In this document: positions 12,010 to 61,093 of the stretch, one piece after another | How the letters are laid out: every line of letters starts with the position of its first letter | Numbering within the stretch: position 1 is the first letter of the stretch | Virus record (IMG/VR): IMGVR_UViG_3300030330_006573 | Coordinates: 96,001-160,000 of that record | Length of the DNA: 64,000 nt | Strand: one strand, 5' to 3' | DNA from: a virus | Lineage: Duplodnaviria; Caudoviricetes | The notes under the pieces: generated by a model | What the model saw: the letters and a program-made list of their open reading frames with translations, nothing else | Told to the model about the DNA's origin: nothing | Database searches by the model: none | Program-made: the position numbers and the translations under genes

Positions 12010-12024
12010 CGTGTAAACAAATTT
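12010..12024 (+). promoter_or_regulatory. GTGTAW motif (putative phage promoter) directly before nrdA GTG
   Basis: CGTGTAAACAAATTT then GTG; variant of a motif seen about 10 times in intergenic DNA. Confidence 0.45.
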
Positions 12025-14499
12025 GTGCAAGATATGGAAATTAATGTAAAAAAGAGGAACGGCAGATTAGTAAAATTTGATGTAGGTAAGATAAATGCGA
12101 GCGCACAGAGAGCGTGCGAAGGAGTAGAGGACGTATCTGCCAGTGAAATAGTGCTAGATGCACAACTCCAACTTTTTGATAAAATAACCACAAGAGAAAT
12201 TGACCAAGCTCTAATTCTATCTGCCAGAGAGAAGATAGAGAAAGAGCCTAACTATTCAAAGGCTGCAGCGCAATTATTGCTCAATACTCTTTACAAAGAA
12301 GTTTTCAAAGAGGGTGTTGATTCTGACACATTTAAACTTCAGTACAGAAAAAGTTTTATTCAAAACATAAAAAAGCTAGTAAAGGAAGATAGGCTAGATA
12401 AAAAATTACTTGATTTTGATCTTCCAAAATTATCTGAAGCATTGAAGATAAGAAGAGATAAGAAGTTTAAATATTTAGGCATACAAATTTTAACTGATAG
12501 ATATTTTATTAGACTCGATGAAAAATGCATGGAGGCTCCACAGAGCTTTTGGATGAGAGTCGCCATGGGTTTAGCAATAAATGAAGAAGACAAAAACAGC
12601 AAAGCTATCGAATTTTATAATTTGATAAGCAAAATGCTTTATACTCCTTCTACCCCAACCCTTTTTAATAGTGGAACAACTCACTCACAACTTAGTTCTT
12701 GTTATCTTAATACTTTCGATGATAGCATTGACGGTATTTTTGACGGCGCTTGGCAAGAAGCTCGCAAATCAAAGTATGCTGGTGGCCTTGGGCTTGATGT
12801 TACCCCTTTTCGTTCTACAGGTTCTCATATTCAAGGAACTAATGGCATATCTAGCGGCCTCGTTCCTTGGCTTAAAATATACAACGATCTTCTTGTTGCA
12901 GTAAATCAAGGAGGCAAGAGGCCAGGAGCTGGATGTGCTTATCTTGAACCTTGGCATTTAGACTTTGAGGATTTCTTAAATTTAAGGAGAAACACTGGAG
13001 ATGATAGACTTCGCTGTCACGATATGAACACAGCTTCTTGGATTCCTGACGAATTTATGCGTCGGGTTGAAAACGAAGGAGACTGGTACTTTTTTGATCC
13101 TAGAGACATGACATATGAAGATGGTAAAACTCTTCATGATTACTTTGGTAAAGACTTTGATGATCGCTATGAAGATGCATGTCGTGCTGCAGAAATGGGT
13201 GATATTAAAAATTTCAGAAAGATTCCAGCAAAAGATCTTTGGAAAAAAATGCTTAAGGTGCTATTTGAAACATCTCATCCATGGAATACATTTAAAGATC
13301 CATGCAATATTAGATATACAAACCAACACGAAGGAGCAGTTCGTAGCTCTAATCTTTGTACCGAAATAACCTTACATACAAAATCTTCTAAATATAAAAA
13401 AGGTGAAAAGACAGAAATTGGAGAGACTGCAGTATGTAACTTAGGTTCAATTAATCTATTAAACCATATTGATGAAGGTGAGCTTGATTATAATCTTTTA
13501 AAATCTACCATTCACACTGCGATTAGAATGCTAGATAATGTTATTGACATTAATTTTTATCCCACAAGAGAGGCTGAAAACTCTAACCTAAAACATCGCC
13601 CAATTGGCCTTGGAATGATGGCAATTCATGACATTCTTCACAAACTTGATATACAAATAGATAGTAAAGAGGCTGTTGAATTTAATAATAAATTATTTGA
13701 ATTTTATTCAATGCATGCTATTTATGCAAGCTCTATACTTGCAGCAGAAAGAGGCTCTTACGAAACATATGAAGGTTCTCTTTGGAGCAAAGGAGTTTTT
13801 CCAATCGATTCCTATAACAACTTAATGGTTTATAGAGGGGTTCAAAAAGTTCCTAAACAGTCTGCTACAGGCAAACCATTAACAGGCAAAGGGCAAACTC
13901 TTGACGAATGGAAAGAAGTAAGAATGCACGTTCAAGAACATGGAATGAGAAACTCAAATACAATGGCGATAGCTCCAACAGCCACAATTGGCTATATAAA
14001 TGGGGTAGAGCAAAGTATAGAGCCTAATTTCTCAGTTCTTTTTGTTTATGAAAATAAAAGCGGTAACTTTTATATAACAAATCCTCATTTTGTTAACGAC
14101 ATGAAAGAAAGAGGTCTTTGGAATGCAGAGGTATCCTCTTTCATAAAAAGTATTGATGGAGATTTATCCCTAGCAAATGGAAATATCCCAGAAGACTTAA
14201 AGGAAAAATATAAGACTGCATTTGACAGAGATATGTTTGCTTTAATTGAATCTACTGCAGTTCGCCAAAAATGGATAGATCAAGCTATCAGTTTTAATCT
14301 TTACAATAAAACAACATCTTTAAAATATTTAAATGATATATATATGGCATCTTGGAAGGCTGGCTTAAAAACTACTTACTATCTAAGAAATAGAGCTGCA
14401 AGCAAAGTTGAGAAATCAACCTCAGAAACTAAAAGCGAGCCGTCAGCTTGCAGCATAGAAGCCATGAAAAATGGAGAAGTTTGCGACTCTTGCCAATGA
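12025..14499 (+). CDS. nrdA: ribonucleotide reductase class I alpha subunit with N-terminal ATP cone
   Basis: VKKRNG ATP cone, TPTLFNSG, SSC, SNLCTEI, CNLGS, APTATI, KTTYY, C-terminal CDSC. Start is GTG 12025 or ATG 12034. Confidence 0.96.
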   Translation: MQDMEINVKKRNGRLVKFDVGKINASAQRACEGVEDVSASEIVLDAQLQLFDKITTREIDQALILSAREKIEKEPNYSKAAAQLLLNTLYKEVFKEGVDSDTFKLQYRKSFIQNIKKLVKEDRLDKKLLDFDLPKLSEALKIRRDKKFKYLGIQILTDRYFIRLDEKCMEAPQSFWMRVAMGLAINEEDKNSKAIEFYNLISKMLYTPSTPTLFNSGTTHSQLSSCYLNTFDDSIDGIFDGAWQEARKSKYAGGLGLDVTPFRSTGSHIQGTNGISSGLVPWLKIYNDLLVAVNQGGKRPGAGCAYLEPWHLDFEDFLNLRRNTGDDRLRCHDMNTASWIPDEFMRRVENEGDWYFFDPRDMTYEDGKTLHDYFGKDFDDRYEDACRAAEMGDIKNFRKIPAKDLWKKMLKVLFETSHPWNTFKDPCNIRYTNQHEGAVRSSNLCTEITLHTKSSKYKKGEKTEIGETAVCNLGSINLLNHIDEGELDYNLLKSTIHTAIRMLDNVIDINFYPTREAENSNLKHRPIGLGMMAIHDILHKLDIQIDSKEAVEFNNKLFEFYSMHAIYASSILAAERGSYETYEGSLWSKGVFPIDSYNNLMVYRGVQKVPKQSATGKPLTGKGQTLDEWKEVRMHVQEHGMRNSNTMAIAPTATIGYINGVEQSIEPNFSVLFVYENKSGNFYITNPHFVNDMKERGLWNAEVSSFIKSIDGDLSLANGNIPEDLKEKYKTAFDRDMFALIESTAVRQKWIDQAISFNLYNKTTSLKYLNDIYMASWKAGLKTTYYLRNRAASKVEKSTSETKSEPSACSIEAMKNGEVCDSCQ

Positions 14500-15107
14500 A
14501 GGTATTAAGCATAGGCACTAAAGGTATTTCTTTTGTAGAGTCTTCTCTCAAAAAGCTCAAAAGCTCTAATATTTCTTTTGAAACTTTAAATGTAGAATCT
14601 GACTTTGATAAATTTTTTGAGAAATGTCTTTTTGACAAAGATTTTTATAAATCTATCAAATCATCTGATATTGTAGTTGTAGATGCTATGATCTTAAAGG
14701 ATTTGATTTCTCAAGAAGATAATTTTAATTTTTATAGAAGAATTCAGAAGTTCTTTTATTTTATATATAGCATTAACAGAGCGACATCTTGCTTCTTGTC
14801 TTTTTATTTTTTTGACAAACAGTATAGAATCAAGAATCTCCCGACAACTAAATACGAAAACAATTTTTTTGATATTTTAGCTCCAGATAGTTTTTATAAA
14901 GCTTCTGAATTAAATGACCCAGAAATATTAATAGACTTAAAGCATGCATTTTTTAATCTCAATAAAAAAGTAAGTCAGAAAAAAACAAAAATCACATCAA
15001 TCGTTAAAAAAAGCAATGAAGATGTAAGCGAACAAGATACTGACGATAAGATTTCTCGCATACAAAAAATACTTGAAAAAAAATCAAAAAATATTATTAT
15101 AAAATAA
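14496..15107 (+). CDS. hypothetical protein
   Basis: ATG at 14496 overlaps the nrdA stop (ATGA). Confidence 0.6.
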   Translation: MKVLSIGTKGISFVESSLKKLKSSNISFETLNVESDFDKFFEKCLFDKDFYKSIKSSDIVVVDAMILKDLISQEDNFNFYRRIQKFFYFIYSINRATSCFLSFYFFDKQYRIKNLPTTKYENNFFDILAPDSFYKASELNDPEILIDLKHAFFNLNKKVSQKKTKITSIVKKSNEDVSEQDTDDKISRIQKILEKKSKNIIIK

Positions 15108-61053: not shown

Positions 61054-61077
61054 TTGGGTTGATTTTTTCTTTAAAAT

Positions 61078-61093
61078 AGTGTAATCTATATTT
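61078..61093 (+). promoter_or_regulatory. GTGTAW motif upstream of tmRNA
   Basis: AGTGTAATCTATATTT, starting 32 nt before the mature 5' end. Confidence 0.5.

Follow-up and report, generated by a model that had tools for sequence, protein, structure and literature searches.

The window analysed here, 64,000 nucleotides (nt) long, spans bases 96001-160000 of the virus record IMGVR_UViG_3300030330_006573 (Duplodnaviria; Caudoviricetes), a single sequence of 179,985 bp that CheckV rates as complete. In this genome the five-letter word GTGTA recurs upstream of genes, in the orientation of the gene that it precedes and at a preferred spacing from the start codon; it is conserved at this position in related phages and co-occurs with one family of sigma-like proteins. 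GTGTA and the A/T-rich stretch behind it probably form a one-piece promoter of non-early genes, which would be read by a phage-encoded sigma factor resembling the extracytoplasmic function (ECF) type and would give rise to leaderless messenger RNAs (mRNAs).

Position, spacing and conservation of the GTGTA element

Offsets are counted from the first base of GTGTA to the first base of the start codon, and coordinates are those of the window unless marked as genome. As a word, GTGTAW is under-represented in the window (24 occurrences seen, 40.4 expected), and GTGTA is the top-enriched 5-mer upstream of genes across the whole genome (17 seen, 1.08 expected, 15.7x). When a site is defined as GTGTA followed by at least 8 A/T in 9 positions, the whole genome contains 29 sites. 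A sense gene start lies 10-50 nt downstream of 20 of these; for the 29 remaining arrangements of its letters the median is about 3. The sequence-only reading of this DNA had proposed comparing the motif upstream of genes with coding or shuffled DNA and plotting its distance to start codons. Against the permuted words the signal is positional: upstream sites are far above these controls, and 12 of the 29 sites stand 13-17 nt before a start, where the median of the permuted words is about 0. The total number of high-scoring sites in a weight-matrix scan is only about 2x that of block-shuffled DNA. Since the shuffles hold about half as many sites, the signal lies in place and direction and not in abundance. 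A weight-matrix scan for degenerate sites with one core mismatch returned nothing convincing, and generic sigma70 and terminator scans of 28000-36500 were uninformative in such A/T-rich DNA.

The genome has a G+C content of ~33%, and the window encodes a DnaE-type polymerase, a ClpB/ClpC-like ATPase, ribonucleotide reductase and a one-piece transfer-messenger RNA (tmRNA). All ten GTGTA sites listed by the sequence-only reading, which counted one extra base 5' of GTGTA in its positions, are present in the window sequence as described, and a position-weight scan of the window gave no further strong site. Six sites have the start codon at an offset of 14-16 (12011+, 17622-, 33345+, 34619-, 34633+ and 52047-), and in these close-set sites 9-11 A/T-rich bases separate GTGTA from the start. 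In three others (29411+, 52579+ and 17664+) the start codon is farther away, at 25 to 45 nt, and the tenth precedes the tmRNA gene. The sites and the features next to them (aa, amino acids; ORF, open reading frame) are:

12011..12027, + strand: GTGTA site, 9 A/T-rich nt, then GTG 12025 at offset 14
12025-14499, + strand: large subunit of ribonucleotide reductase, downstream of GTGTA 12011; an in-frame ATG lies also at 12034
17606..17622, - strand: GTGTA site, GTG 17608 at offset 14, 74-aa ORF 17384-17608; half of a divergent pair
17664..17711, + strand: GTGTA site, ATG 17709 at offset 45; the implied leader of ~30 nt contains AGGAG
29411..29438, + strand: GTGTA site that overlaps the preceding gene's stop codon; start codon ATG 29436, offset 25, without a Shine-Dalgarno sequence
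33345..33479, + strand: GTGTA site followed at offset 15 by ATG 33360, whose ORF (33360-33479) has only 39 aa
34601..34619, - strand: GTGTA site with ATG 34603 as start (offset 16) of the 375-aa protein 33476-34603; preserved in the related locus L011
34633..34650, + strand: GTGTA site with ATG 34648 as start (offset 15) of the 457-aa protein 34648-36021; preserved, with a spacing of 15 nt, in the related loci L092-L094
52030..52047, - strand: GTGTA site, GTG 52032 at offset 15, 103-aa ORF 51721-52032
52579..52606, + strand: GTGTA site followed at offset 25 by ATG 52604, lacking a Shine-Dalgarno sequence
61079..61473, + strand: GTGTA site 31 nt 5' of the mature tmRNA end at 61110; tmRNA gene 61110-61473

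The tmRNA at 61110-61473 matches Rfam RF00023 with 147.7 bits. Two back-to-back divergent pairs had been claimed, and both exist (17622-/17664+ and 34619-/34633+). In the second pair the divergent start codons at 34603 and 34648 are separated by 44 bp, a space where promoters for both genes are needed and that is filled by their two motifs, and the same divergent layout is found at four further junctions of the genome.

Conservation in relatives was followed through the orthologue of genome 24624-25817, for which 59 viral contigs have a usable start. GTGTA precedes the ATG in 50 of them, at protein identities of 41-77%; the spacing is mostly 14-15 nt, with six contigs at 17-23, and the flanks have diverged. 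The 397-aa protein used as anchor is a multi-domain protein common to Pelagibacter and Roseobacter phages, and its reading as a capsid protein was dropped on this account. A set of 60 non-redundant related loci contains 119 GTGTA sites; 49 of these have an ORF of at least 60 codons beginning 13-17 nt downstream, compared with 0-5 for unrelated control words. L011 (64-78% identity) retains GTGTA on either side of the divergent junction 34619/34633. In relatives, the minus-strand gene at 52032 has five orthologues whose ATG follows GTGTA at 14 nt, which backs GTG 52032 as the true start. One other locus among the relatives has a tmRNA gene, and the 60 nt preceding it contain no GTGTA.

Aligning 213 non-redundant sites from the whole clade yields a logo of five invariant bases followed by nine positions nearly devoid of G and C. 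Nothing resembling a conserved -35 element appears in this logo, the maximum at any upstream position being 0.14 bits. The would-be -7 position reads A103 C13 G3 T94; T is not conserved there. A TAWWWT hexamer after GTG had been considered as the true -10 element and was dropped after the 213-site logo.

Two side observations concern the annotation of these units. Longest-ORF calls begin at the GTG of the motif or upstream of it, or else use a GTG or TTG that lies upstream (12025/12034 and 34633/34648 in the window, genome 51273/51288 and 83783/83801). Judged by motif spacing and relatives, the true starts would lie 5-6 codons further in, and 11 codons further in at window 52065/52032. The 39-aa ORF 33360-33479 lies between convergent genes, over a terminator-like hairpin (33383-33395) of the minus-strand gene, and the product of GTGTA 33345 may be a small protein or an antisense RNA.

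Start-codon geometry and the proposed mechanism

Clade-wide, 141 sites have a start codon at offsets 14-17, which is ATG in 134 cases and GTG in 7. The six close-set sites of the window had been described as lacking a Shine-Dalgarno sequence, and this holds far beyond the window: a Shine-Dalgarno-like word between motif and start occurs in 0 of the 141 clade-wide sites at these offsets. At offsets of 19-45 some leaders of this genome contain a Shine-Dalgarno sequence, but clade-wide this holds for only 7 of 60. Because GTGTA also precedes the tmRNA and stands 19-45 nt away from the start codon in some units, it is not a ribosome signal tied to that codon; the presence of a Shine-Dalgarno sequence of their own in several of the 19-45 nt gaps of this genome likewise indicates that GTGTA is not a translation signal.

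The likely position of the transcription start can be calibrated with two other promoter classes. The genome contains a second class of promoters, TTGACW-N16-18-TAnnnT, which is found among the small genes at both genome ends. Of its 36 matches, 11 have an ORF-opening ATG 5-7 nt behind the hexamer, 9 of them at exactly 6 nt, and four control words gave 0 at the 5-7 nt spacing; the 6-nt peak is also seen in relatives. This hexamer-to-ATG spacing would place the sigma70 +1 on the A of the ATG, so that the early messages would be leaderless too. Leaderless geometry would then not be particular to the GTGTA class, as the early sigma70-type promoters appear to share it.

The second calibration comes from T4-like contigs that encode distant homologues (26-44% identity) of the 34648-36021 protein. 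There, the gene is preceded by (N)ATAAATA, with the ATG 11-12 nt after the first A, and the known spacing of T4 late promoters (PMC2988020) puts the start on the A of the ATG in these homologues. GTGTA thus seems to occupy, in a homologous place, the position of a known T4 late promoter. In the T4-like loci L095-L171 (341 kb), 28 of 81 ATAAATA words stand in that position before an ATG.

Sigma70-type promoters that end 5-7 nt before a gene-opening ATG are located at genome 5006, 5544, 5884, 7568, 14305, 18040, 167667, 173959, 176703 and 178600, and at window 61480-61515. Two promoters of this type in the window are:

61480..61515, + strand: sigma70-type promoter, TTGACT-N16-TATATT, 5 nt, ATG 61513
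55372..55399, + strand: sigma70-type promoter, TTGACA-N16-TATGGT, upstream of the operon with the window's sigma-like genes

Just 3' of the latter, at window 55400-55432, a G-run is followed by GTTCGAATCC and a run ending in TTCCA, which together resemble the T-arm and 3' end of a transfer RNA (tRNA) or tmRNA; ARAGORN called no tRNA or tmRNA gene at window 55400-55432. In addition, several early promoter regions share the word TGCGAA(A), whose distance to the start codon takes two different values. One set, at genome 5544 and 5884, reads TAAGGT-TGCGAA-ATG; the other, at genome 6429, 15514, 16073, 17327 and 176110, reads TATGCGAAA, followed after 7-9 nt by ATG. TGCGAA may be an extended -10 element (TGc+GAAnnT) in one set, which leaves the other set unexplained.

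On these grounds, GTGTA and the following 9-10 A/T-rich bases would act as a one-piece promoter without a -35 element. The host core RNA polymerase, equipped with a phage ECF-like sigma factor, would recognise the five invariant bases around -15 to -11, the A/T-rich stretch would melt, and the first transcribed base would be the A of the start codon or lie 1-2 nt upstream. About half of the GTGTA transcription units would accordingly yield leaderless mRNAs that need no Shine-Dalgarno sequence. At offsets of 19-45 the same start point would leave a short leader; at 61079 it would leave a tmRNA precursor, and a start near 61093 would give this precursor a leader of ~16 nt.

The genes behind GTGTA include structural genes, ribonucleotide reductase and the tmRNA, and with such mixed targets its temporal class can be resolved only as non-early, not as middle versus late. 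Four marine metatranscriptome runs contain 7-17% of the words sampled from genome 42001-52000. Judged by the TTGACA-type promoters and by AAGGAGG ribosome sites that occur now and then, the host would be a bacterium whose primary sigma factor has ordinary specificity.

Candidate sigma factors and alternative readings

The genome encodes four weak ECF-like sigma candidates, which were scored against TIGR02937 (cut-off 42.9 bits) and PF04542 (cut-off 24 bits):

59404..61053, + strand: protein with an ECF-like sigma N-terminal part (residues 15-204) and several helix-turn-helix domains; TIGR02937 40.4 bits, below the cut-off of 42.9
57682..58395, + strand: very weak sigma-like protein; TIGR02937 15.5 bits
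genome 89736-90320: 194-aa sigma candidate; TIGR02937 31.7 bits
genome 37317-38015 (L002:17317-18015), outside the window: 232-aa sigma candidate; TIGR02937 28.2 bits, PF04542 20.8-23 bits

Their distribution was compared in three related records that carry GTGTA before the orthologue of genome 24624-25817, two of which are at least 93% complete; wider sampling revealed further GTGTA sites in two of the three. The 57682 and 59404 proteins, which the sequence-only reading had named as possible readers of the motif, were not found in these three GTGTA-using relatives. The 194-aa protein is present in two of the three records and the 232-aa protein in all three, at 42-61% identity. The promoter for leaderless mRNAs proposed in that reading is well supported, though indirectly, by position, orientation, conservation, the tmRNA target and both geometric calibrations; a phage sigma factor as reader is plausible, whereas its choice of sigma factors is not supported.

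The best candidate for the reader is most likely the 232-aa protein, as judged from its sequence and distribution. Its family comprises >1000 protein clusters and is encoded on >500 viral contigs, and many members pass the PF04542 Sigma70_r2 profile in precomputed hits. Inspection by eye reveals an ECF region-2-like series, D-D-V-x-Q ... P-W-I-x-x-I-x-x-N-Q ... R-N, and a region-4-like C-terminal helix-turn-helix. Between the two parts lie four invariant cysteines (C88, C91, C103 and C115), a segment resembling a zinc ribbon that has been built into a sigma factor. Searches of the PDB with phmmer and profiles returned only weak ECF region-2 matches for this protein. When 68 non-redundant loci were anchored solely on the 232-aa protein, 112 of 235 GTGTA sites stood 13-17 nt before an ORF, compared with 0 of 38 in the T4-like control loci (341 kb).

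Several points weigh against a promoter of this kind, or against this reader. Promoter function, transcription start and the reading sigma are what we infer as most likely from the sequences, the start from geometry alone. Four of the genome's leaderless-type sites have GTG as their start codon, which serves leaderless messages poorly in E. coli. For both PF04542 and TIGR02937 the 232-aa protein falls short of the curated cut-off; its AlphaFold model is of mediocre confidence (predicted local distance difference test score, 72), and a Foldseek search with this model gave no match at E<=0.001, the top 50 matches all being sigma factors at E >=0.07. It has a sigma4-like C-terminal part, yet a -35 element is not visible. 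Furthermore, its assignment corresponds to co-occurrence within one clade and is not independent evidence. The 232-aa gene itself lies downstream of a GTGTA site (genome 34850), which means that another factor must start the cascade; the 194-aa protein, whose unit has a sigma70-like promoter, may be this factor. Finally, the ribonucleotide reductase orthologues (~79% identity) in the related loci L050, L055 and L057 have a TTGACA-type promoter and not GTGTA, and thus one and the same gene can have different promoter classes in different members of the clade.

The strongest of the alternatives, although an unlikely one, is that the host primary-sigma holoenzyme reads GTGTA as an unusual extended -10 element without a -35 element, a preference that phage proteins shutting off -35-dependent transcription may create late in infection. 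Such a shut-off is exemplified by the Thermus phage P23-45. If the TA of GTGTA is taken as -12/-11, the hexamer-to-ATG distance becomes 5-6 nt and equals that of the phage's own sigma70-type promoters, and TG-type extensions upstream of a -10 element are common. The middle and late promoters of phiYS40 are, in addition, reportedly read by the host polymerase. Most of the middle and late mRNAs of that phage are leaderless (PMC3594737, citing Sevostyanova 2007). Nevertheless, a primary sigma factor is an unlikely reader, because GTG directly abuts TA, which brings the TG one base nearer to the TA than in TGnTATAAT, because the -7 T is unconserved in 213 sites in which G-T-G is invariant, and because the host-type promoters of the same genome have ordinary TTGACA/TAnnnT specificity. 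The co-occurrence of a conserved phage sigma family with GTGTA also speaks for a dedicated reader.

It is improbable that GTGTA is the site of a phage activator or repressor placed over weak A/T-rich promoters instead of an element contacted by polymerase. The phage does encode many helix-turn-helix proteins, and an invariant 5-bp word could form half of an operator. However, the word is strictly gene-oriented and single, it has no symmetric partner, and it keeps a fixed distance of 9-10 nt from the start point, which is where sigma region 2 acts and where activators are normally not bound. Moreover, the 213-site alignment leaves no other conserved element that could serve as the promoter.

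A role of GUGUA and the A/U-rich tract in RNA, either as an endonuclease processing site or as a ribosome-recruiting element, has very little probability. It would suit the sites in tiny gaps between co-directional genes, such as 29411, which overlaps the upstream stop, since these would be transcribed by read-through. The divergent pairs (34619/34633, 17622/17664, genome 83771/83787 and 51245/51273), by contrast, would need promoters inside the opposite genes. A ribosome signal is also difficult to reconcile with the variable distance of 14-45 nt and with the tmRNA target, and the same geometry is found in sigma70 and T4-late promoters, which act at the level of DNA. Reading by a strongly diverged, non-canonical RNA polymerase of the phage itself is just as remote: short promoters abutting the start are known for jumbo-phage polymerases (PMC4666361, PMC7598289) and many large ORFs of this phage belong to no family, but the genome gave no match to multisubunit beta/beta-prime domains in a search whose positive controls worked in 14 genomes, a search for T7-type RNA polymerase, run without a positive control, found nothing, and the conserved sigma-like genes that are present need a cellular core enzyme.

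Significance and comparison with known systems

The promoters of uncultured phages are almost never known, and GTGTA would be a label of non-early transcription units in hundreds of abundant marine phages. As a promoter it would provide operon maps and corrected gene starts, with several longest-ORF starts in this genome being off by 5-11 codons, and it would offer a handle on temporal gene classes. The pair of sigma factor and promoter is testable and could be of use to synthetic biology. In a wider and decidedly tentative reading, a large clade of uncultured marine phages runs nearly all of its units leaderless, including both the early units of host-sigma70 type and the later units of GTGTA type; GTGTA would be read without -35 contact by an undescribed zinc-ribbon sigma factor, and host or phage would favour 5'-terminal AUGs genome-wide. 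GTGTA and the leaderless early promoters would then point to a host with routine leaderless translation, which narrows the search for this host, and leaderless early and later units would bear on the prevalence of leaderless initiation in the ocean.

A search of open papers, which also covered cyanophage late promoters and leaderless messages, found no paper on the GTGTA motif. The closest likeness is offered by phage phiEco32, whose middle and late promoters are read by the sigma factor gp36 together with gp79 on the host core polymerase (PMC8948821, PMC12276001). gp36 recognises tAATGTAtA, transcription starts 6-8 bp downstream of this element (PMC8948821), and the G of TGTA, at -11, is the first unpaired base (PMC12276001). 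Both systems use a single short TGTA-containing element without an obvious -35 consensus in front of non-early genes, and gp36 is a small, diverged phage sigma factor acting on the host core enzyme, a role that is proposed here for the 232-aa candidate. The distance from TGTA to the start is 8-10 nt in phiEco32; here, 9-10 nt lie between GTGTA and ATG, the start being placed by geometry only, and with the phiEco32 spacing it would fall on the A of the ATG or 1-2 nt before it. The two differ in the word itself, tAATGTAtA as opposed to GTGTA, and phiEco32 transcripts are not described as leaderless in PMC8948821 and PMC12276001. Furthermore, gp36 contacts -37/-34 in cryo-electron microscopy (cryo-EM), whereas nothing is conserved there in the GTGTA clade. 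A profile search of the PDB with the 232-aa sigma factor returned no gp36 chain; a gp79 counterpart was not searched for.

The late promoters of T4, TATAAATA at -13 to -6, depend on gp55, gp33 and gp45 (PMC2988020) and are likewise -10-only promoters with a phage sigma-like reader. They differ in that the sites of the window carry GTGTA, ATAAATA being found in such geometry only in the T4-like homologous loci, and in that the phage described here replicates with a DnaE-type polymerase. The extended -10 promoter (TGnTATAAT) also has a conserved TG before a TA-initiated A/T-rich stretch and needs no -35 element, and the A of GTGTA is invariant. In GTGTA, however, GTG abuts TA in 213 of 213 sites with no spacer base, an extra G is invariant and the -7 T is missing.

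The abutting of element and start codon has precedents as well. Promoter -10 regions adjoin ORFs in Deinococcus-Thermus (PMC12340547), and in this group and in phiYS40 the -10 region abuts the start codon, most non-early phiYS40 messages being without a leader (PMC3594737, citing Sevostyanova 2007). Different from phiYS40, the element described here does not appear to be the -10 of a primary sigma factor, and the early promoters are leaderless in geometry as well. Thus, the GTGTA system would be set apart from these known cases by its word, by a sigma factor without detectable similarity to gp36, by a promoter without any trace of a -35 element and by a leaderless early class that accompanies it.

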